This document shows positions 519 through 64,000 of a DNA stretch of 64,000 nucleotides, in pieces. The position numbers were made by a program, and so were the translations under genes. The notes below the pieces were generated by a model. It had not been told where the DNA came from, ran no database searches, and saw only the letters and a program-made list of their open reading frames with translations. Each line of letters starts with the position of its first letter. The stretch's first letter is position 1. The DNA comes from Nitrospirales bacterium (GTDB lineage: Bacteria > Nitrospirota > Nitrospiria > Nitrospirales > UBA8639), in the NCBI GenBank assembly GCA_963555755.3, contig OY820905.2, forward strand, positions 3,456,001 to 3,520,000, read 5' to 3'.

Positions 519-1424
519 ATGAGTAAAGAACGAATAAAAATAGCTCCGGAAATGTATGACATCATGCCGCCGGAATATCAGGACTTAGTTAACAAAGCCA
601 CGTATGGGAAAGAATCTCGAGGGTGGAAGGATATTGGTACTTCCAAAGAATTGATTGAAGAACATTCGTTATGTGCAGGGTGTCCGGAGTCAATGGCCTT
701 TCGGTACATTTTAGCATCCCTCCCTGCTCCCGAAGATACCGTGATGGTGGGTTCGACAGGCTGTACCAGTCTAGTTTTCCCCCACATCGCCATTCATAAT
801 ATTCACTCTCTCTTTGGAAACCAAAACGCGATTGCTTCCGGACTCAAGCGAGCGTTGACTGTGCGGTTTCCTGGGCAGGTCAAAGATGTCGTGGTGTTGG
901 CAGGGGATGGCGCAACGGTCGATATTGGACTCGATATGACCTTACAAGCGTGGTTCCGCCAAGAAAAGTTCACCACCATTTGTTTTGATAATGAACTCTA
1001 CGCCAATACCGGCGGCCAAGAAAGCGGATTGATGCAAAAAGGGTTTGTGGCAAAGATGGCTCCCGTGGGAAAGAACTTCGAAAAAGTTCGACTTCCTGAA
1101 ATTGCGAGAGAATCCGGCTGTCATTACATCGTGAATTGTACGGTCAGCAAACCAAACCTTGTGGAAAAAGTGATTAAAAACGCGATCTATGTAGCTCGCG
1201 AAATTGGGCCGACCTATTTGCAGCTGTATACTCCCTGCATTCTTGAAATTGGAAAAAACAGCATGGAAGGCCTTCAAGAAATGCGGGACTCGGAAAAACC
1301 CACCGAACGCTTTGCGTACAGAGAATATATCAGTGATCAGGCAAAAGAATTGTTGACCGAAATGGCCGCAAAAGAAAAAGAAAGAAAAGCTGCTGCCAAA
1401 AAGCAACTGGCAGGAAAAGCCTAA
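519..1424 (+). CDS. 2-oxoacid:ferredoxin oxidoreductase beta subunit (TPP-binding)
   Basis: CAGC, STGC and GDG..DIG...DNELYANTGGQ TPP motifs; RBS GGAGG. POR vs OGOR not resolved; the A-B-G-E order resembles forDABGE. Confidence 0.92.
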   Translation: MSKERIKIAPEMYDIMPPEYQDLVNKATYGKESRGWKDIGTSKELIEEHSLCAGCPESMAFRYILASLPAPEDTVMVGSTGCTSLVFPHIAIHNIHSLFGNQNAIASGLKRALTVRFPGQVKDVVVLAGDGATVDIGLDMTLQAWFRQEKFTTICFDNELYANTGGQESGLMQKGFVAKMAPVGKNFEKVRLPEIARESGCHYIVNCTVSKPNLVEKVIKNAIYVAREIGPTYLQLYTPCILEIGKNSMEGLQEMRDSEKPTERFAYREYISDQAKELLTEMAAKEKERKAAAKKQLAGKA

Positions 1425-1453
1425 CCAGCCAAGGTTGGTCAAGGAGGAACGTA

Positions 1454-2152
1454 ATGATCAAAAAGAGAATCAATATTCGAATGTCAGGCCTTGGAGGGCA
1501 AGGTGCGGTCACAGCAGCTCATGTGATGGCGATGGCGGCTTCTCGCGATGGGAAATTTTCGATCTCCAATCCATTTTTTGGCGCTGAAAAGCGGATGGCC
1601 CCGGCAGAAAGTTATTGCCGAATTGGGATCAACAAAATTTTTGACCGTGGAGAGTTGGTCTATCCTGATGTGATTGAAGTGTTTCACCCGCAAGTCATTA
1701 CATTGGGTAAAAGTTACACGATGCCATTTTATTCAGGCATCAAAGAAGGAGGACTCGTCATCATCAACTCGGACATGCCTCTTCTTACGGATGAAGATGT
1801 GAAGCGGTTGAAGGATTTAGACGTGGCGGTGTTTTACATTGCCGGGACTCAGGTTGCGTTAAAAGTTGCGGGTACCGAGCTTTCCACGAACATGACCATG
1901 ATTGGGTCGGTCGCCGGGATTACGAAATGTGTCTCTTTGAAGGGACTCGAGGGGGCTCTTCAGGAGAGGTTCGGCAAAAAGTTTGTGGCTTCTGGTGGTA
2001 CTGCTACCTTGGATGAAGCCATCAAAAAGAAATTCGCTAAAAAAGAAATGCTGTTAAAGAAAAATATGGATGCTATAATTGCTGCGTACGACATGGCGTC
2101 TGAATGGGCCGAAAAGAATAATTACGAACTAGCCGTCGCCGCCGCGGCATAA
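1454..2152 (+). CDS. 2-oxoacid:ferredoxin oxidoreductase gamma subunit
   Basis: GLGGQGAVTA and PFFGAEKR motifs. Confidence 0.92.
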   Translation: MIKKRINIRMSGLGGQGAVTAAHVMAMAASRDGKFSISNPFFGAEKRMAPAESYCRIGINKIFDRGELVYPDVIEVFHPQVITLGKSYTMPFYSGIKEGGLVIINSDMPLLTDEDVKRLKDLDVAVFYIAGTQVALKVAGTELSTNMTMIGSVAGITKCVSLKGLEGALQERFGKKFVASGGTATLDEAIKKKFAKKEMLLKKNMDAIIAAYDMASEWAEKNNYELAVAAAA

Positions 2153-54876: not shown

Positions 54877-55066
54877 GGGCCGGTTGAACATTTCACTCCA
54901 ACAGCCAATAAAAGCTCCAGATGAGCCACGCATTGTCAGTGGGAGGGAATGTTCAAAAAAGTTCGTCCAGCAAGGCCGCAGCCGTTTTGACGAGCGGAGC
55001 GTACTCATAGTACGTGAGCACGGCAAAAGGGGGAGAACGCCGCTGGCGGCTTTTTTCAACATTCCC
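54877..55066 (+). mobile_element. MITE family D, long form
   Basis: 5-bp AAAAC duplication; family D ends and core. Confidence 0.8.
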
Positions 55067-55143
55067 AAAACGGAATCTGAAAAACGATGCAAAAAACCCA
55101 AGGACAGGTCAGACTCAAAGATACGGCTGTACAGAGAAGGAAG

Positions 55144-55860
55144 TTAGACAATATCCGAAGACAATGGTTCTTCTTCGGCAGAGGTATGAGAGGAAAGCCC
55201 AGTCGAAGGCAGTTCTTTGGGATGGATCAGGGTCAAGCAATCTTCCGCCACAGGGTCTTTGTGGAACAGGGCATAGATTGGAAATATTTTAGACGCATGG
55301 CCTCCCTGCTGAGAAGGCAATAACACTGGGACTTCTACCCACGGTGAGGGTGTATCCAAACTTGCCAAGCGAAGGCGAACGGCTAACAGCATATCTCGGA
55401 TTCGGGTCTCTCCCTCAGGAGTCCCAACTTCCGATGAATCGGCGATACTCCGACTCCACAAAGACTTGGTGATGCCAACGGCCAAATTAAATCCTACACC
55501 TTTGGCCTTCTTGCTCACATCGATAAGCAGACCTGCATCAATCGCTTCCTGGCGAGACGTAATGTGACGAGAAGGCTCCTGTGCCTCGGATGCTGGGATC
55601 ACCGTCTGTTCTTCCGATGATGCGCCAAGATTTAAGGTTTCTTCGAAAAGCCCCTCCGCCCCCACCGGGATCTCGATTGAATCAACATCCGTTTCAACTG
55701 GCTCGAAGGAATCAACGGTTAAGCCTCTCGCATGCAACACTCCGTCATACACGGCCCGGGCCGACTTGGACCAAGACGAATGAAAGGGCCTTCCTTGGTA
55801 CGCCGCTTCCGCCGCTTTTTTCTCATCATGGCTCAAGGCACGTGGTAGTTTCATATCCAT
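55144..55860 (-). CDS. Hypothetical protein (C-terminal DUF6573-like segment)
   Basis: SRQEAIDAGLLIDVS..A...GF...V.IT..LW pattern, recalled rather than verified. Confidence 0.6.
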   Translation of the reverse strand: MDMKLPRALSHDEKKAAEAAYQGRPFHSSWSKSARAVYDGVLHARGLTVDSFEPVETDVDSIEIPVGAEGLFEETLNLGASSEEQTVIPASEAQEPSRHITSRQEAIDAGLLIDVSKKAKGVGFNLAVGITKSLWSRSIADSSEVGTPEGETRIRDMLLAVRLRLASLDTPSPWVEVPVLLPSQQGGHASKIFPIYALFHKDPVAEDCLTLIHPKELPSTGLSSHTSAEEEPLSSDIV

Positions 55861-56035: not shown

Positions 56036-57544
56036 TTACGGAATGAGGCCTGGGGAAGATTGGGCAAATTGTACTCCACCCACCTGGTTCACCAAATGCG
56101 TGACACTGGCATCCATCATTTCCATCAATGGACCAGGATACAGGCCAATCCACAGCACGAGGACGGCTAAGGGAATGACCGTTGCTAATTCACGATAGCT
56201 TAAGTCAGGGAGAAGCGAGGCGGCTTTTGTATTGGGCTCACCCAGGGCCACTCGTTGCAACATCCAAAGCATATAGGCCGCAGCCAAGACGATGCCCACC
56301 ATCGCGAGTAACACCATCACAAAACTTTTGAAGGAGGTACCGATGAGTACCAAGAATTCACCGATAAAATTACACGTACCCGGCAGGCCAAATGACGCAA
56401 TGGAGAAAAGACAAAACAACGTCACAAACCGAGGCATGGTTTTGTGAAGGCCGCCATAGGCACTGATGTCGCGATTGTGTGTCCGGTCATACAACTGACC
56501 GACTGCCAAAAATAGGGCTCCTGTTGTAATACCATGATTAAACATCTGAAGAATCGCGCCCTGAATGCCCTGGCTATTGAAGACAAAAATTCCAAGCGTC
56601 ACAAATCCCATATGGGAAATCGAAGAATAGGCGACCAGCTTTTTAAGATCCGACTGTGCCAAGGCCATGTACCCGCCGTAGATGATAGCCGCGATCGACA
56701 ACCATAAAATAAACGGCGCAAATTGTGCTGAAGCCTCTGGAAACATAGGCAGGCAAAATCGCAAAAACCCATACCCGCCCATTTTCAACAACACTCCAGC
56801 GAGAAGAACACTTCCCGCGGTTGGGGCTTCCGCATGGGCATCAGGCAACCACGTATGGAAAGGCAGCATGGGTATCTTGATGGCAAAGGCTAAAAAGAAC
56901 GCTAAGAAAATCCAAAACTGTACATCCGATGAATAGGTGTGATTGGTGAGGGCCACAATATCAAAAGTGCGGCCCCCTTCGAGATACAGACCTAAAATCC
57001 CCACGAGTAACAACAAGCTACCCGTGAGGCTGTACAGAACAAACTTGATGCCTGCGGCAATCCGGTCGGGTCCTCCCCACAGGATAATCATGAAATACAT
57101 GGGAATCATGGTGATTTCCCACAGCATGAAGAAGAGGAAAAGATCCAGTGCGGTAAAGACCACAATCATGGCGCCTTCAACTAGAAGGATCAGCATCATG
57201 AAGGCTCTGACCCTCGTGGTGATGGACGTCCAAGAGCAGAGGACACAAAGCGGACAGAGAAGAGCCGTTAACAAAACCAGCAGGATGCTAATTCCATCGA
57301 CACCCACGGCATACTGAATGTTGAAGGTGGGCATCCACTGCATACGCTCAACGAACTGCATGCTATGCTGTCCGAAATCAAAACCAGACCAGAGCATGAG
57401 GGACAGCCCAAAATTTAGCAGGGTAGCAGCGAGCGCCGTTCGACGAATCCACTCTTGATTTTGAACGAATGCCAGAGCGGCAATTCCAAGAACAGGAATG
57501 GCAATCATCCAACTAAGAATGTGATCGGCAAAGATAAAGCTCAT
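56036..57544 (-). CDS. NuoM-like antiporter-type membrane subunit
   Basis: GVDGIS, FFMLWE, KIPMLPFHTWLPDAHAEAP, LLKMGGYG, AYSSISHMG. Confidence 0.9.
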   Translation of the reverse strand: MSFIFADHILSWMIAIPVLGIAALAFVQNQEWIRRTALAATLLNFGLSLMLWSGFDFGQHSMQFVERMQWMPTFNIQYAVGVDGISILLVLLTALLCPLCVLCSWTSITTRVRAFMMLILLVEGAMIVVFTALDLFLFFMLWEITMIPMYFMIILWGGPDRIAAGIKFVLYSLTGSLLLLVGILGLYLEGGRTFDIVALTNHTYSSDVQFWIFLAFFLAFAIKIPMLPFHTWLPDAHAEAPTAGSVLLAGVLLKMGGYGFLRFCLPMFPEASAQFAPFILWLSIAAIIYGGYMALAQSDLKKLVAYSSISHMGFVTLGIFVFNSQGIQGAILQMFNHGITTGALFLAVGQLYDRTHNRDISAYGGLHKTMPRFVTLFCLFSIASFGLPGTCNFIGEFLVLIGTSFKSFVMVLLAMVGIVLAAAYMLWMLQRVALGEPNTKAASLLPDLSYRELATVIPLAVLVLWIGLYPGPLMEMMDASVTHLVNQVGGVQFAQSSPGLIP

Positions 57545-57585
57545 GGGATCCCCTTCTCCCTACACAAGTTCCAATAGGGTTCTCA

Positions 57586-59760
57586 TTACACAAGCCAATA
57601 GAAAAGCCCTATAGCTGCCACTAACCAAAAAATCATGACCAATAAATGGTGCTGAAGCGTCCGTGGTTCGATTCTCTGCAAAAGATGACCTGTTGCATCG
57701 GCCTCCCGTCCCAACCGTTCGACATTCTTTTCAATCCCGCGAATATCGATAACCTGCCAGAGCCACTGAGCCAGGTTCACGGTTTGACCACCAATCCCAA
57801 CTACCCTTCGATCAATGCCTTTGACATCCACTACTTGCCACAGCCAACGAGCGAGGCTCACGGTTTGACGCCCAATCCCAACCACCCCGCGATCTATTCC
57901 TCTGACATCTACAACCTGCCACAGCCATCTGGCCAACGTAACCGATACCCCAGCAATACCACTAATGAAGCGATCAATACCTCCAAGATCAACAGTCCGC
58001 CATAACCATGTGGACAATCGAAGTGTGGGTTGAATCACATAGACTTCGTAGATCTCATCAAAATACAATTTATTCAAAAAAAGTACATACAAAGTTTTTC
58101 CCCATTCCGACTGTGCCAGGAATGATGGTCGGGGTTTGATATGAAGGAAGTAGGCAAAACCCCATCCGCAAAATGCCACGACAAGCGGTAACATGATCCA
58201 CAAAGAGATTCCCCCAAACGTGGTCTGTTCATTGAGGAGTGGAACAGGCTGCCCCAATGCCGGTGCCAGGAATTGAACAAACCACCCCCACAACACCATG
58301 AGAACGCTCACCAACATCACGCCCGCAACGAAAAGTCCTACGAGGTGTGAAGGCGAAAACAACTGGGGCTGGACGACAAACGATTTCCCACCTTCCACAT
58401 CTCTGACTGAGGGTCCGCCCTGAAAGAATAAGAGGATTCCCCGAAAGAGATACATCGCCGTAAAAAAGACAGTGGCTAAGCCCATCACCCAAAAGACAGT
58501 TTTGGCTGAAGCAAAATTATGCACGGTCCACAAATATTCATAAGGCCCTGAAAAGATCACGAAAGGAGGAATGCAGGCTAACACCAGTGCGCCAACAGAC
58601 AAAGACCATGCTGGCCTCGAGGTCGGCCCATGGCCAACATCAGACTGAGGATGGCCGTGGGCTTGAACCGACCGTAGGGCGTTCCCTGTAGACAGGAATA
58701 AAAATGCTTTCAAACATCCATGAGCTAACACATGAAACGTCGCGGCCACAAACGCCCCAATGCCGCAGGTCATGATCATGAACCCAATTTGACTGATCGT
58801 GGAGTAAGCGAGAATCTTTTTAATATCGGTCTGCGTCAGTGAGACAATCGCCGCGAACAGAGCCGTCACCGCACCGACAACCGCGATGACGGTCATAGCC
58901 AGTGGCGAGAAAACAATCAACGGACTTAAACGAATGAGAAGGAAGGGCCCCGCATTCACCATGGTTGCCGCATGGATCAGCGCTGAGACAGGGGTGGGCG
59001 CTTCCATGGCAAACGGCAACCATACATGGAAAGGAAGTTGCGCGGACTTTCCCATTGCACCCATCAACAATAAAAGGGAAATCACTGTCAGGGTGTGAAC
59101 TGAGTATTCAAGCCCTATCCATCCCAACAGATTCATCGTATGCCCACGCATGCTGTCCGCCTGAATCAAAATTTGTTGAATGTCGAGAGTCCCAAATGTG
59201 GCAAAGGTCAGGATGATTCCGAACCCGAGTCCAACATCCGCAACGGCGTTGACTAAAAACGCTTTCGTGGCGGCCTGGCATGCTGATTGTCTTTGAGCAT
59301 AATGGGAGATCAAGAGATAGGAACAGATCCCCATGATCTCCCAACAGATAAACAACATGAGCAGGTTGCTACTCATCACCAACATCACCATGGAAAAGGT
59401 AAACAACGCGATGACCGCGAAGAAACGATTGTAACGGGGATCCCCGATCATGTATCGGGAAGAGTAGATGTGAACGATGCTGCTGACCCCTGTGACCAAC
59501 ATCAACAAGAGGACGGTGAGTTGGTCGATATACAGACCAAGGTCGACGACGAGATTTCCGGACTGAATGAAGCGGTAGAGAGGAACTGATATGGCTCCGT
59601 TCCTTACAACCTCAATGAATGCGCCTACCGACAATCCGAAGGATACACCTATCGCAGGAATCGCAACTTTGTGGCTTTTCTCTCCCACCCACCGCCCGCC
59701 CAACGCGAGAGTAAGAAACGCCACCAAAGGAAGAAGCGGGATCAGAACGTAAACTGACAT
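57586..59760 (-). CDS. NuoL/MrpA-like antiporter-type subunit with extended C-terminal helix
   Basis: WEIMG, GKSAQLPFHVWLP.AMEAPTPVSALIHAATMV, AYSTISQIG; 27-aa repeats at the C-terminus. Confidence 0.9.
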   Translation of the reverse strand: MSVYVLIPLLPLVAFLTLALGGRWVGEKSHKVAIPAIGVSFGLSVGAFIEVVRNGAISVPLYRFIQSGNLVVDLGLYIDQLTVLLLMLVTGVSSIVHIYSSRYMIGDPRYNRFFAVIALFTFSMVMLVMSSNLLMLFICWEIMGICSYLLISHYAQRQSACQAATKAFLVNAVADVGLGFGIILTFATFGTLDIQQILIQADSMRGHTMNLLGWIGLEYSVHTLTVISLLLLMGAMGKSAQLPFHVWLPFAMEAPTPVSALIHAATMVNAGPFLLIRLSPLIVFSPLAMTVIAVVGAVTALFAAIVSLTQTDIKKILAYSTISQIGFMIMTCGIGAFVAATFHVLAHGCLKAFLFLSTGNALRSVQAHGHPQSDVGHGPTSRPAWSLSVGALVLACIPPFVIFSGPYEYLWTVHNFASAKTVFWVMGLATVFFTAMYLFRGILLFFQGGPSVRDVEGGKSFVVQPQLFSPSHLVGLFVAGVMLVSVLMVLWGWFVQFLAPALGQPVPLLNEQTTFGGISLWIMLPLVVAFCGWGFAYFLHIKPRPSFLAQSEWGKTLYVLFLNKLYFDEIYEVYVIQPTLRLSTWLWRTVDLGGIDRFISGIAGVSVTLARWLWQVVDVRGIDRGVVGIGRQTVSLARWLWQVVDVKGIDRRVVGIGGQTVNLAQWLWQVIDIRGIEKNVERLGREADATGHLLQRIEPRTLQHHLLVMIFWLVAAIGLFYWLV

Positions 59761-59863
59761 AGGCTATCTAAAGAATGAACGATTATGAAATTGTTGAACA
59801 ATTCATTTTTCTGACATCAACTGTGCTATCTGATCGATTAAGATAGATTGCCAAGTAGGAATG

Positions 59864-59984
59864 GGGAATGTTCAAAAAGGTTGTCCAGCAAGGCCGCAGG
59901 GCCTTTGGCGCGCGCAGCGTACACGGAGTACGTGAGCACGACAAAGGCTCGAGAACGCAGCTGGCGGCCTTTTTCAACATTCCC
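59864..59984 (+). mobile_element. MITE family D inside the mrp/nuo cluster
   Basis: GGGAATGTTCAAAAAGG...TTTTTCAACATTCCC with the shared core. Confidence 0.75.
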
Positions 59985-59991
59985 CTTAAGA

Positions 59992-61461
59992 TTACAGCCC
60001 CGCGGGCAGAGCTGAATCAAGCAAAAACCCTACAATGGGATCACTGAACAACCCTAAAAGGATGATCGCGGCTGACACAACACCTATACTCACTTTCATA
60101 GATAATGGCGCCTCAACAGAAATGATCCCTGAAGATGGTTGAGTATCACGAAAAATACGTTCAAAGAGCTTAATGAAATAGGCCAACGTCAAAACAGTAG
60201 AGATGATCACCGCCGCAACCGCGAGATAATTCTGGGCTTCAAGAGCGCCAAGGATGATATACCATTTGCCAAAAAATCCACCGGTTGGGGGAAATCCAAC
60301 CATCGACATGGCCATGATGATGAGCGCACCCGTCATCCATGGCGCTTGTCCTCGCAAACGGCCCAAATCCTCGATGGTCCGAACGCCATACTGATACATC
60401 GCGGCACCTGCCAGGAAAAAGAGGGCGGCCTGCATAACCGCATCATTGATTAAATAAAACACCCCTCCTGCAAAACCCGTCGGATTTCCAATACCGACCC
60501 CGATGAGGATCAACCCAATATGAGAAATCCCACCATAGGCGAACATTCGTTTAACTTCATGTTGTGTCAATGCCAGAAATGCCCCAACCACTGCGGCAAG
60601 GGCCCCCAACTCCACCAGAAGGAACAGGACTGGAACATGTTCAATTTCCGCATTCGCACCCACCACCCAAAACATGATCCGGATCCAGGCGAGTAAGGCC
60701 ACTTTGGTGACCAAAGAAGCGAGGAAAGGTGAAATGGCGTCCGGTGCATGAGTATAGGCATCAGGCAACCACCCATGAAGTGGCATGAGTGCCATCTTAA
60801 TTCCGAGGCCGAGGAACATGAAAATCAACCCTCCAACGATGGCTTTGGAAGTTAATAATTCAGGCACTCGCTGAGCCAAGTCCGCCATGTTGAGCGTTCC
60901 CGTCGCCGCATAAAAGTAGCCCACCCCTAATAAATACAAGGAGGCCCCAAGCGTGCCCAAAATGAGATATCGAAAGGCGGAGACGAGAGCTTTCCCACCT
61001 GCAACTCCTACCAGGGCATACCCGGATAACGCGGCAACTTCCAGGAACACAAACACGTTAAATAAATCCCCAGCGAAGACGATCCCTGTAACCGCTGCAA
61101 TCAACAAAAGGATCAAGGTGTAGTAGGGCACAATCCGTTGTCCAAGCGCAGAAGACGATGTCGGACCTGCATTGATCAAGGAAATCAATGCCAATAGGCT
61201 GAGGGTCACCATGATGACACTCGCCAGCCCATCATCGACCCATTCAATGCCAATGGGAGGCGCCCAGCCGCTGAAGGCATAACGAATTTCTCCTGAATCC
61301 ATGACGACGACAATATTGGCAATCGATGCGACACTCATGGCAGAGACAGCCGCTATTGCCATCGGTTGACACCACTCACGATGTTTCAATCCGACCATGG
61401 GCAAAGAGATGGCTGTCAAGAAGGGAAGCAGGAAGAGGAGCGCGGGAAGGTGATGACTCAT
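59992..61461 (-). CDS. mrpD: Mrp antiporter subunit D
   Basis: GWAPPIGIE, DLFNVFVFLE, TGTLNMADL, PLHGWLPDAY. Confidence 0.87.
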   Translation of the reverse strand: MSHHLPALLFLLPFLTAISLPMVGLKHREWCQPMAIAAVSAMSVASIANIVVVMDSGEIRYAFSGWAPPIGIEWVDDGLASVIMVTLSLLALISLINAGPTSSSALGQRIVPYYTLILLLIAAVTGIVFAGDLFNVFVFLEVAALSGYALVGVAGGKALVSAFRYLILGTLGASLYLLGVGYFYAATGTLNMADLAQRVPELLTSKAIVGGLIFMFLGLGIKMALMPLHGWLPDAYTHAPDAISPFLASLVTKVALLAWIRIMFWVVGANAEIEHVPVLFLLVELGALAAVVGAFLALTQHEVKRMFAYGGISHIGLILIGVGIGNPTGFAGGVFYLINDAVMQAALFFLAGAAMYQYGVRTIEDLGRLRGQAPWMTGALIIMAMSMVGFPPTGGFFGKWYIILGALEAQNYLAVAAVIISTVLTLAYFIKLFERIFRDTQPSSGIISVEAPLSMKVSIGVVSAAIILLGLFSDPIVGFLLDSALPAGL

Positions 61462-61835
61462 TCCAATCTCTTCAAAATTTCATCTTCATCCAAGGTGCCA
61501 TATTTCCGATAAATCGCCGCGACCAAGGCCAAAGAGACGCCCAAGGTCGCGACCTGGACCACGATCGCCGTTAACGTCAAGACATGCGGTAATGGATTGG
61601 TATAGGTGGCAGCTTGGACTGGGCCTGTTCCGGACAACAGAATAGGAACCGTGGCTCCTGTTTTCGCACTGATTGCCACGAGAAAAAAAATCACGCTGGT
61701 CTGCACGATGTACATGCCAATGAGCTTTTTGACAAGGTTATGGTGGGTCACCATGATGTAGAAGCCCCAGAGAAACAGGATCACGAAGGCAATAAAGTTT
61801 GACCGGTGAAGCCACGTCTCAATGAGTTCAAGCAT
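61458..61835 (-). CDS. mrpC: Mrp antiporter subunit C
   Basis: NLVKKLIG, NPLPHVL.LTAIVV. Confidence 0.87.
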   Translation of the reverse strand: MLELIETWLHRSNFIAFVILFLWGFYIMVTHHNLVKKLIGMYIVQTSVIFFLVAISAKTGATVPILLSGTGPVQAATYTNPLPHVLTLTAIVVQVATLGVSLALVAAIYRKYGTLDEDEILKRLE

Positions 61836-62277
61836 GTGAGTCCTCGTCGTTGTCGTTGGACGACAAACTAAACACAATAGAGATAACCGTCACGGCGACA
61901 TCGACCGCTACACCAATTTGTGTCAGCATGATGCCCACATAACGGCGTGAAGCGACCTCGAGGCCGTAGATTTCGAGGGCGGCGTAATTCAAAAACTCCC
62001 CTCCCCCGATCAGACACAACCCACCGACCCCAGCAAATATCAGCAAACCAAGCCCATCACCATGCACCACCTTCTGCGCCACATTGCTATACGAAGCGTG
62101 AGGACCAAAAATGAGGATCGATAAAATCATACTCGTGCCAAAAATCACCCCACCCACAAATCCTCCCCCGGGGCCATACTGTCCAAAGAACAGCACATAC
62201 AATCCATACAATTGCATTAAGGGAATCAAGAGTCGTCCTAACATGAGAACAATGACACTATCGTGCGCTTGGATCAT
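61828..62277 (-). CDS. mrpB: MrpB/MnhB-domain subunit
   Basis: GPGGGFVGG motif. Confidence 0.82.
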   Translation of the reverse strand: MIQAHDSVIVLMLGRLLIPLMQLYGLYVLFFGQYGPGGGFVGGVIFGTSMILSILIFGPHASYSNVAQKVVHGDGLGLLIFAGVGGLCLIGGGEFLNYAALEIYGLEVASRRYVGIMLTQIGVAVDVAVTVISIVFSLSSNDNDEDSHA

Positions 62278-62804
62278 GCCTTGTTTCTCCTGAGCAACAA
62301 GGCACAGGCAATCCCGGCTGTAAAAATCACAACGGTCTCAAGCAACGTATCGAAAGCGCGGTAGTCCATAAGAACCGAGGTCACGACATTGGGGGTAAGG
62401 GTATCGTGCATACTGTTTTCCAAGTACACGGGAGAAATATGAACGCTTGCAGGAGAGGCAGGATCTCCAAATTTGGGAAGATCCTCGGCCGCATACAAGA
62501 GGAGAAAGCCAAGCAGAGGCAATCCGATCAACGCGGCCCAGGGAGGGGGCGGACGATGAAGGCGAGTATCCTTTGGAGCTGTCTCAAATAGCGTCAAGAG
62601 AAAAAACACCGTCCCCAAGCCCGCGCCCACGACTGCTTCAACAAACGCCACATCTACAGCTCCAATCCATGCCCACACCAACGCTAAAAAGAAACTGTAG
62701 GACCCCAAAATAAACACCGCTGGCACCAAGTCTTTGACCAGAATGGCTCCACCCGCTGTCAGAATCAGGAGAATCAGTAGAGGAATTTCAAATGAAAACG
62801 TCAT
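62274..62804 (-). CDS. DUF4040/MbhE-type Mrp subunit (split MrpA C-terminus / MrpB N-terminus)
   Basis: A.DVAF.EA.VGAG, PNVVT.VL.DYRAFDTL.E. Confidence 0.82.
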   Translation of the reverse strand: MTFSFEIPLLILLILTAGGAILVKDLVPAVFILGSYSFFLALVWAWIGAVDVAFVEAVVGAGLGTVFFLLTLFETAPKDTRLHRPPPPWAALIGLPLLGFLLLYAAEDLPKFGDPASPASVHISPVYLENSMHDTLTPNVVTSVLMDYRAFDTLLETVVIFTAGIACALLLRRNKA

Positions 62805-63100
62805 GGTTGTTCTCGCCCCCAAGGTTTGAGGCCAGAGCGAAGCGCCGCGCGAATGGTGGCATGTGAAACGACAGGATTCAATAGATACAGAAGAGCCAGA
62901 ACCACGAGAATTTTGAGCAGGTTCAAGCTGAATCCTTGGTAAATGGCCAACCCTGCCAATACCAGAAACGCACCCAAGGAGTCAGTCAGTGAGAGGGCAT
63001 GTGAGCGGGTAAACACATCTGGCAAACGCAGCATGCCAATGGCCGCGACGATCAGAAAAAACAATCCTGCGAGAATAAAAACGATGGCAATCAGAGACAT
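62801..63100 (-). CDS. mrpG: Mrp antiporter subunit G
   Basis: G.LRLPDVFTR.HA. Confidence 0.87.
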   Translation of the reverse strand: MSLIAIVFILAGLFFLIVAAIGMLRLPDVFTRSHALSLTDSLGAFLVLAGLAIYQGFSLNLLKILVVLALLYLLNPVVSHATIRAALRSGLKPWGREQP

Positions 63101-63367
63101 TTACGCCCTTCCTCGCTGTTCAAGAAATTTGGCAATGGCCAAGGCACCCACGAGATTGAGCAAGGCATATCCCGTGGAGATATCCACGAACATGTCCACC
63201 CGCCCATATACGGTCCCGATCACCACCAGCAAAATAATGGCTTTCGTCGAGATGCCATTGAGGCCCAACACTTGGTCAAACACTGTGGGGCCTTGGACCA
63301 CACGGTACAAATACGCCAAAATTAAGATCACAAGGACGATCAACACGAACAGAAAAAAGAATTTCAT
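63101..63367 (-). CDS. mrpF: Mrp antiporter subunit F
   Basis: R...GPT..D motif. Confidence 0.85.
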   Translation of the reverse strand: MKFFFLFVLIVLVILILAYLYRVVQGPTVFDQVLGLNGISTKAIILLVVIGTVYGRVDMFVDISTGYALLNLVGALAIAKFLEQRGRA

Positions 63368-63861
63368 GCTGAACCCTCTTGCTGCCGAAACACCTTGGCA
63401 ATTTTTTGTTCGAGCCGTTGACTGGTCAAATCATCGCCAGATGCATCATCCATCGCATGGACGATGAGTTCCTGAGCATTCACTTCAGCCGTGATCGTGC
63501 CAGGAGTCAGCGTAATGGAATTTCCTAGAAGAACGATGGCGGCTTGGCCCTGCAACTTGGTTCGGTAGTGAATAAGCTTCGGATCAATGGGAAGAGCAGG
63601 ATGAAGAATGAGGGCAGTCAGATGAAGACTGCTGAGCACAATGCGCCCAAAGAGCCACGGGAAATACCCCAAAATTCGCAACAGGGGTAAGTTTCGGAAA
63701 GGAGAGTCTGCGTGGCCTGAATTCAGCCAAGCCACGCCAAAAGACACCACGAGCCCGAGGCCCATATGAAACGGGTTATATTTTCCTGACAAAATGAGCC
63801 AAATGACAAAAAAAACCAAACTCTTCAAGATGAGTGTTTTATAGAGGCTAGAGTTCATCAT
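63364..63861 (-). CDS. mrpE: Mrp antiporter subunit E
   Basis: NSITLTPGTI, VHA. Confidence 0.88.
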   Translation of the reverse strand: MMNSSLYKTLILKSLVFFVIWLILSGKYNPFHMGLGLVVSFGVAWLNSGHADSPFRNLPLLRILGYFPWLFGRIVLSSLHLTALILHPALPIDPKLIHYRTKLQGQAAIVLLGNSITLTPGTITAEVNAQELIVHAMDDASGDDLTSQRLEQKIAKVFRQQEGSA

Positions 63862-63882
63862 GTTTCTGGGTCTATGAAAATC

Positions 63883-64000
63883 CTACCCACCCGCGGTCAA
63901 CGCCATGTGTTCCCAAGTTGCATCAGGGTTATATCGATGAATCTCAAAGGTGTTGGGGTCCAGTGCAATAAGATTAAGCCATTGGTTATGGAAAAGCTGC
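63883..64000 (-). CDS. 3' end of a probable DUF2309/DabA inorganic-carbon transporter subunit (truncated by window)
   Basis: Manual translation QLFHNQWLNLIALDPNTFEIHRYNPDATWEHMALTAGG* resembles the recalled DUF2309 C-terminus (LxxNxWlxLxxxD). Confidence 0.6.
   Translation of the reverse strand, partial: QLFHNQWLNLIALDPNTFEIHRYNPDATWEHMALTAGG

Follow-up and report, generated by a model that had tools for sequence, protein, structure and literature searches.

What is a gene for a CO2-hydrating protein doing at the head of a sodium/proton antiporter operon? The question is raised by one end of a stretch of 64,000 nucleotides (the window) from the contig OY820905.2 of Nitrospirales bacterium, where dabA precedes a set of mrp genes and a pair of genes resembling nuoL and nuoM. 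In marine nitrite oxidizers the locus is annotated as an antiporter conferring salt tolerance; it is likely to be a large ion-driven carbon pump. That the cluster is a DAB system with an unusual membrane partner, real and conserved, is well supported. Our best explanation, that its ten genes specify one ten-subunit proton-driven machine that both hydrates CO2 and exports cations, stands at about an even chance. To our knowledge, the characterized DAB pumps all have one to three subunits.

The dabA/mrp Cluster

The cluster reads dabA-mrpE-F-G-DUF4040-B-C-D-nuoL-like-nuoM-like, all on the minus strand, with the nine membrane genes at window positions 56036–63861. In what follows, the NuoL-like and NuoM-like subunits are those of this cluster; TM denotes a transmembrane helix.

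63883..64000, minus strand: 3′ end of dabA, which continues to G000:C1:3523029; PF10070, 888 bits
63364..63861, minus strand: mrpE, 165 residues; PF01899
63101..63367, minus strand: mrpF, 88 residues; PF04066
62801..63100, minus strand: mrpG, 99 residues; PF03334, TIGR01300 over cut-off
62274..62804, minus strand: DUF4040 protein, 176 residues; PF13244 and PF20501, NF009159 over cut-off
61828..62277, minus strand: mrpB, 149 residues, with a PGGGF motif; PF04039
61458..61835, minus strand: mrpC, 125 residues; PF00420, NF005624 near cut-off
59992..61461, minus strand: mrpD, 489 residues, complete Glu/Lys proton axis; PF00361
59761..59991, no strand: mrpD–nuoL-like gap of 231 base pairs (bp) with a genome-wide repeat element; 289 blastn hits in the genome, 222 of at least 100 bp
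57586..59760, minus strand: NuoL-like subunit, 724 residues, without TM12 Lys399/Asp400 and Arg175; TIGR01974 over cut-off
57685..58008, minus strand: four 27-residue units of the NuoL-like lateral helix; WLW at residues 585, 612, 639, and 666
56036..57544, minus strand: NuoM-like subunit, full-length, 502 residues, complete proton axis; TIGR01972, 626 bits

The preliminary description had called the gene upstream of mrpE a DUF2309/DabA gene on the strength of 38 residues. The full open reading frame (ORF) vindicates that call: it covers PF10070 positions 1–747, encodes 1048 residues if translation starts at GTG and about 1012 if at the first ATG, and aligns with DabA2 (9RD0_A) at E 5e-117. 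As in the DAB/DAC/MpsAB family, there is a Cys2-His zinc site with an Asp–Arg dyad (C539/D541/R543/H737/C752, numbered from GTG), together with an acidic membrane finger (D638) and the DW...RPEWGL motif (the W866 and L875 motifs). These eight residues are invariant in 70 of 70 distinct relatives, an alignment from which duplicate sequences and proteins shorter than 850 residues were removed. Mrp-linked DabA proteins of 1242–1266 residues in L010, L034, L115, and L117 retain the long cytosolic arm of DabA1 and are possible intermediates.

Reading of the ORFs and family profiles also bears out the described gene order and the 21-bp dabA–mrpE spacing. The later intergenic distances are −4, 0, −4, −4, −8, −4, 231 (mrpD–nuoL-like), and 41 bp (nuoL-like–nuoM-like), so that six junctions within the ten-gene cluster overlap or abut. 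In many relatives mrpD and the nuoL-like gene overlap or abut, in contrast to the 231-bp gap here, and the repeat element in that gap is not part of the machine. Text resembling the repeat also occurs near window 54900–55100. No terminator among those listed falls within the 21-bp gap, and promoter-like sites number 14 against 15.9 expected. Four public RNA runs gave short contigs of low depth, and among the pieces listed none spans dabA–mrpE.

Conservation of the Operon

The association of dabA with mrpE holds well beyond this genome. Sixty-nine loci with this DabA were found, nine of them too short to be informative; in 59 of the remaining 60, mrpE lies downstream, either adjacent (45) or beyond a DegP-like gene (10), a DAB1 operon (3), or a helicase gene (1), and in one it is missing. 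All nine membrane genes are visible in 49 of the 69 loci. The carrier hosts are labelled Nitrospirales, Nitrospinota, Myxococcota, Gammaproteobacteria, Deltaproteobacteria, and Acidobacteriota, the close relatives being Nitrospirales. Searches from the other end of the operon give the same picture. With the NuoL-like subunit as query, 251 genomes of the phylum yielded nine newly fetched loci, each with dabA upstream, and a metagenome scan found dabA upstream in 52 of 54 informative loci (80 fetched). The 80 comprise 32 with dabA and mrp genes, 20 with dabA directly before the nuoL-like gene but lacking mrp genes, 26 truncated at contig ends, one with a DAB1/SulP insertion at its edge, and one orphan. 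This type of mrpF was found in 33 of 60 relatives and in none from two DAB1-carrying families; a later-found member of those families (G244) carries the operon. A homologue search with MrpF added no context.

Several variants were seen among these loci. The DegP/HtrA-like protease gene between dabA and mrpE belongs to one lineage (L015:7769–9310 and nine further loci) and travels with dabA in G032. L016, L019, L023, and L033 have an insertion of a complete DAB1 operon, oppositely oriented, between the Mrp-type dabA and mrpE. The two systems coexist in many genomes, and the DAB1 operons of L024, L025, and L178 have two tandem dabB genes. At L223:9980–12080 a NuoL-like gene stands beside a SulP gene, with neither dabA nor mrp genes upstream nor a nuoM-like gene downstream.

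The Membrane Partner of DabA

The genome, 99.4% complete, encodes a single DabA. It has ten PF00361 genes, three in the dabA/mrp cluster and seven in two separate nuo clusters, which by sequence are a canonical nuoL-M-N set and a nuoL-M-M-N set. A canonical DabB hidden elsewhere was considered and found nowhere among the ten matches. Because there is one DabA and no other DabB in the genome, the membrane partner of DabA must come from the cluster. The NuoL-like subunit likely acts as that DabB, since dabA occurs with the nuoL-like and nuoM-like genes where the mrp genes are absent.

Residue patterns, numbered as in E. coli NuoL, point the same way; NuoL-like sequences shorter than 620 residues were dropped, leaving 67. 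All eight true NuoL proteins keep the TM12 pair K399/D400, and an MrpA control (L134) has the Lys; the pair is lost in 67/67 NuoL-like subunits and in 32/32 DabB1. At the T260 position Asn is found in 66 of the 67 and in all 32, and K229, H334, and H338 are retained (67/67). This is the pattern of a DAB partner, a PF00361 protein that lacks the TM12 Lys/Asp and keeps the proton residues of TM7, TM8, and TM11. In DAB2 the finger residue Glu444 of DabA substitutes for NuoL K399/D400 (10.64898/2026.03.13.711513); this and the other publications cited here are represented by parts of their text, and statements about them hold for those parts. The NuoL-like subunit is neither a true NuoL nor an MrpA. 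The K399/D400-bearing NuoL with linked redox module that marks a complex I or hydrogenase arm is absent from the cluster, as is, in 67/67, the TM12 Lys/Glu proton entry of the MrpA-type subunit of a group-3 Mrp.

The last point bears on the published reading of the nuoL/M-like genes (PMC7784846, PMC12342949), in which the locus would be a normal Mrp antiporter with three pumps, serving salt and pH control, and dabA a bystander. All the small Mrp subunits are indeed present. Proton entry in MrpA, however, needs the TM12 Lys (PMC9568556) that the NuoL-like subunit lacks; DabA would be left without a partner; the NuoL-like gene trails dabA even where there are no mrp genes; and dabA decays once the arm is lost, as described below. 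We consider this reading very improbable.

Structure prediction supports binding of DabA to the NuoL-like subunit. The complex of DabA 495–1035 with NuoL-like 78–535 scored 0.72, the best of three controls 0.00; 116 of 157 solved pairs reach the mark for this score and 2 of 215 mismatched ones do, counts that are only roughly valid for our own alignments. Contacts agreed to at least 82% between runs, with a predicted local distance difference test of at least 74 for the partner. In the predicted complex D638 contacts H343 of the NuoL-like subunit (NuoL H334), which would put Asp638 into the gap left by the TM12 pair.

Several observations weigh against equating the NuoL-like subunit with DabB. 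The predicted pair resembles solved DAB complexes, close cousins can pass the score, and no true NuoL was among the three controls. Placement inside the DabB clade was not supported: in a tree of 44 rows, for which 19 of the 67 NuoL-like and 12 of the 32 DabB1 sequences were chosen, the subunit forms its own clade (94/92), and its position relative to NuoL and DabB is not separated. It keeps E144 (67/67) and loses R175, where DabB instead loses E144, and its long lateral helix (tails of 77–190 residues) is not a DabB feature. Modeled alone, it matches only NuoL/ND5 in a fold search, DabB2 falling outside the top 50. The contact between DabA Glu704 and a His/Arg of DabB in DAB1 is absent on both sides.

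One Machine or Two

Within a single ten-subunit machine, DabA would dock on the NuoL-like subunit as on DabB, with its finger entering that subunit. Protons would enter through the NuoL-like subunit, its outer half-channel completed by D638, and through the NuoM-like subunit and MrpD; their inward flow along NuoL-like, NuoM-like, and MrpD would drive both CO2 hydration and the export of cations through the small distal Mrp subunits. As proposed for DAB1 (PMC13684180), proton flow may switch the buried DabA site to one-way CO2 hydration. The lateral helix would brace the arm, whose order would be NuoL-like–NuoM-like–MrpD–MrpC–(DUF4040, B, F, G, E). For the direction in which ions flow we follow DAB and Mrp systems. 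Exported Na+ might help the neighboring SulP carrier to import bicarbonate, which would feed biotin- and phosphoenolpyruvate-dependent carboxylases, with CO2 trapped in the cell.

The case for a single machine is made by gene content and by conserved residues. In 3/3 DabA-free group-3 mrp operons, mrpC is followed by three antiporter-like genes, and the NuoL-like and NuoM-like subunits fill the two distal places of that arrangement. Both the NuoM-like subunit (E144, K234, K265, and E407, 61/61) and MrpD (the equivalents of NuoN E133, K217, K247, and K395, 67/67) keep the whole Glu/Lys axis, and the NuoL-like subunit keeps its long lateral helix. The earlier proposal that DabA docks on a full Mrp-type module stands in part: the partner comes from this cluster and the link to mrpE is conserved. 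The predicted dock, however, is the NuoL-like subunit, not the small Mrp subunits, and it is from gene content that we infer that the Mrp proteins belong to the same complex.

A different division of labor is suggested by the Mrp-free operons. A three-subunit DAB, in which the NuoM-like subunit would be a full-length DabC, may share an operon with a second machine, a small group-3 Mrp made of E, F, G, DUF4040, B, C, and D, which would supply SulP with Na+ or relieve the acid load. The core needs no Mrp, since its three genes stand without any mrp gene in 20 of the 80 metagenome loci and in G042; the DabC of DAB1 aligns with NuoM helices (PMC13684180); and 14 of 60 loci have unrelated genes interposed between dabA and mrpE. 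The NuoM-like subunit occupies the place of DabC. No residue marks its coupling to MrpD: Glu144, tried as such a mark, was rejected because 10 of 11 Mrp-free forms keep it. The core's independence and this missing mark both weigh against a single machine. On the other side, two machines would leave the Mrp with a single antiporter subunit, against three in DabA-free operons; the lateral helix could span at least two further subunits, and DabB2 has no such helix (10.64898/2026.03.13.711513); and mrp and nuoL-like/nuoM-like genes disappear jointly in the genus described below. Two machines seem somewhat unlikely.

An Mrp-free dabA–nuoL-like–nuoM-like operon, in places extended by sulP and mpsC, was noted in L159–L177, L188, L229, L231, L237, and L127; it would encode an uncharacterized three-subunit DAB with a full-length NuoM.

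The Sodium Path

All of MrpB, C, D, E, F, and G are present, as in a group-3 Mrp, and the DUF4040 protein supplies the C-terminal part of MrpA as a stand-alone, MbhD- and MbhE-like protein. The closest solved small subunits are those of MBH/MBS. The MrpA C-terminal part keeps its acidic residues at the sodium exit without exception (63/63). Two other positions of the sodium path, with roles taken from PMC7419157 and PMC9568556, count against cation export by the proposed machine: the MrpF Asp seen in solved Mrp/MBH structures is Asn (64/64), and the MrpC His is Thr (61/61). The same replacements occur in one DabA-free group-3 Mrp, and MrpF Asn with MrpC Gln/Thr was rejected for that reason as the mark of a sodium-free DAB arm. 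A group-3 Mrp of Aphanothece is a Na+/H+ antiporter (PMC5703873). The cation that the proposed machine would export is probably Na+.

The same architecture, with the same evidence, could run backwards. Sodium would enter through Mrp, and the arm would expel the proton that CO2 hydration releases; in cyanobacterial NDH-1/Cup, redox energy does this work. The invariant sodium-exit acids, the mainly marine or saline habitats described for the carriers (PMC12342949), and the argument that MpsAB uses sodium (cited within 10.64898/2026.03.13.711513) would suit such a cycle. DAB2, on the other hand, is sodium-independent (10.64898/2026.03.13.711513), characterized Mrp complexes export sodium (PMC7419157, PMC9568556), and the locus has also been reported, its DabA link unconfirmed, from acidic-soil Nitrospira (PMC12516955). 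We consider a sodium-driven pump unlikely.

The Lateral Helix

The tail of a canonical NuoL has room for one 27-residue unit; the present NuoL-like subunit has four. Measured from a fixed motif in the 67 sequences, tails fall into classes of 77–79 (6 sequences), 104–107 (7, one cut by the locus end), 132–134 (36), 160–161 (13, including this one), and 190 residues (1); two tails fall outside these classes, one of 98 residues (truncated at a contig end) and one of 143 (G042, which is Mrp-free), and two sequences were unmatched. Canonical NuoL tails measure 75–78 residues and that of the genome's two-NuoM cluster 110; the helix here is at least as long as in three-pump complex I. A 26-residue insert for each extra pump subunit has been reported, and so have inserts that come without one (PMC9040806). 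The idea that helix length tracks gene number was not supported: Mrp-linked tails of 77–190 residues are accompanied by one nuoM-like gene each, and Mrp-free tails measure 90–143. Since there is one such gene per operon, either the NuoM-like subunit is present in several copies or the repeats are neutral.

A bolder reading would make the ten genes a vectorial carbonic anhydrase with an adjustable gear. DabA would cap a complex-I-like arm, and the helix of that arm would grow in 27-residue steps (one to five units, each about one subunit width), with the NuoM-like subunit reused in tandem, and so set the number of ions per CO2 hydrated and per Na+ moved. The machine would be a main carbon-entry route of marine nitrite oxidizers. 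It would also stand as a living link in a series that runs from Mrp arm through three-gene core and DAB1 to DAB2. We regard this as quite improbable.

Joint Loss of dabA and the Arm

Genus g4 offers a natural experiment in 18 genomes that are 97–100% complete. In eight of them mrpE and the NuoL-like subunit are missing, the mrp genes and the nuoL-like/nuoM-like pair having been lost together. None of the eight has an intact dabA: it is absent in two (G019, G024), internally deleted in four (one deletion shared by G009, G174, and G220, another in G276), and frameshifted in two (G189, G226). DabA1 of the ordinary DAB1 is kept in all eight, and dabA is intact in nine of the ten genomes that have the arm. 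This distribution agrees with a DabA of no use without its arm, whose place DAB1 can take. It is weakened by G160, in which dabA is frameshifted beside an intact arm, and by G032, in which an intact dabA lies 263 kilobases (kb) from the arm; moreover, the genomes are kin and not independent, three share one deletion, and the frameshifts may be assembly errors.

Neighboring Genes and Carbon Metabolism

In agreement with the preliminary description, no hydrogenase or NuoB/C/D/H/I gene was seen beside the cluster among the ORFs of 3,500,000–3,550,000, read by eye with 14 scanned against Pfam. Beyond the window end (L001:13221–19999) lie a divergent mpsC (PF10057), a SulP carrier, a Tll0287-like heme protein, and a two-component pair. 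In 31 of 52 loci a SulP gene, and in 18 of 52 mpsC, occurs no more than 5 kb upstream of dabA. A DUF6573-like gene (window 55144–55860) and priA trail the operon in many relatives, and both mark deletion ends in genus g4. Downstream (L002:3175–14522, G000:C1:3544489–3545457), several transposase-like ORFs and one reverse-transcriptase-like ORF were judged by eye.

A special tie to autotrophy by the reductive tricarboxylic acid (rTCA) cycle, as first suggested, was not supported. The host has ATP-citrate lyase and no rubisco match, yet neither enzyme was found in four of four cluster-carrying bins of non-nitrifiers, for which completeness is not given. The cluster is not confined to rTCA autotrophs. 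The two 2-oxoacid:ferredoxin oxidoreductase subunits at window 519–2152 are about 54 kb away and outside the cluster. No beta-carbonic anhydrase was found in the genome; there are two alpha-type matches, and therefore DabA is not the sole CO2 hydrator.

If the proposal of one machine is correct, DabA on a complete Mrp-type arm unites carbon capture with sodium and pH control, and offers a direct test of how lateral charge transfer along a complex-I-like arm powers a non-redox reaction. It would also recast a locus that has been taken for a salt adaptation in marine Nitrospirales and that occurs in Nitrospinota too, which are major dark-ocean carbon fixers. Hosts in culture and simple E. coli complementation assays are available. 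PMC10880623 asks how rTCA organisms take up carbon, a question on which the proposal also bears.

Comparison with Known Systems

Parts of this picture are already in print, separately. In COGNAT clade C (PMC5700660), ybcC/COG3002 precedes a nuoL homologue, accompanied by SulP and NuoM, in the same dabA–nuoL–nuoM order; the available text mentions no Mrp small subunits and names no carbon function. Clade C is probably the Mrp-free form found in the metagenome loci. The loci of Ca. Nitrospira alkalitolerans and lineage IV Nitrospirales (PMC7784846, PMC12342949, PMC8115632) have the same E-F-G-DUF4040-B-C-D order, two further antiporter-like genes, and a SulP/BicA neighbor, and are treated as an Mrp Na+/H+ antiporter with extra nuoL/M-like genes, DabA being unnamed in the portions available. 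Here, by contrast, the distal pair is the NuoL-like/NuoM-like pair and dabA heads the block. In the available tables for N. marina, a 1006-residue “hypothetical protein” two identifiers before mrpE, with 1–6 spectra, fits DabA by length only; the nine membrane proteins are undetected there. In the parts consulted, 10.1101/476713, PMC12516955, PMC13399641, and PMC10880623 do not join DabA to Mrp, and a literature search, whose coverage left out most subscription journals, found no paper joining the Mrp-free core with the Nitrospira locus.

As one machine, the cluster would share with MBH/MBS and cyanobacterial NDH-1/Cup the design of a soluble catalytic module on an Mrp-like arm. Unlike those systems, it encodes no redox module, and energy must therefore come from an ion gradient. 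DAB2/MpsAB of H. neapolitanus (PDB 9RD0; 10.64898/2026.03.13.711513) likewise has lost K399/D400, has an acidic finger residue in their stead, has one ion pair broken, and has mpsC (PF10057) nearby. It comprises two subunits rather than ten, and the broken pair differs: DabB2 loses E144 and has no long lateral helix, whereas the NuoL-like subunit loses R175 and has an extended one. With DAB1 (DabA-DabB-DabC), known from electron cryomicroscopy of the Thermocrinis albus complex (PMC13684180), the cluster shares the zinc site, the lid, the NNPY..DCGACGG and DW...RPEWGL motifs, the membrane finger, and a partner resembling NuoL with a neighbor resembling NuoM. It departs from DAB1 in a DabA without the Glu704 contact and, in most members, without the flexible arm; in a NuoL-like subunit that keeps E144 and the long lateral helix; in a NuoM-like subunit of full size with its proton residues, where DabC is half-size; and in seven added Mrp genes with dabA first.

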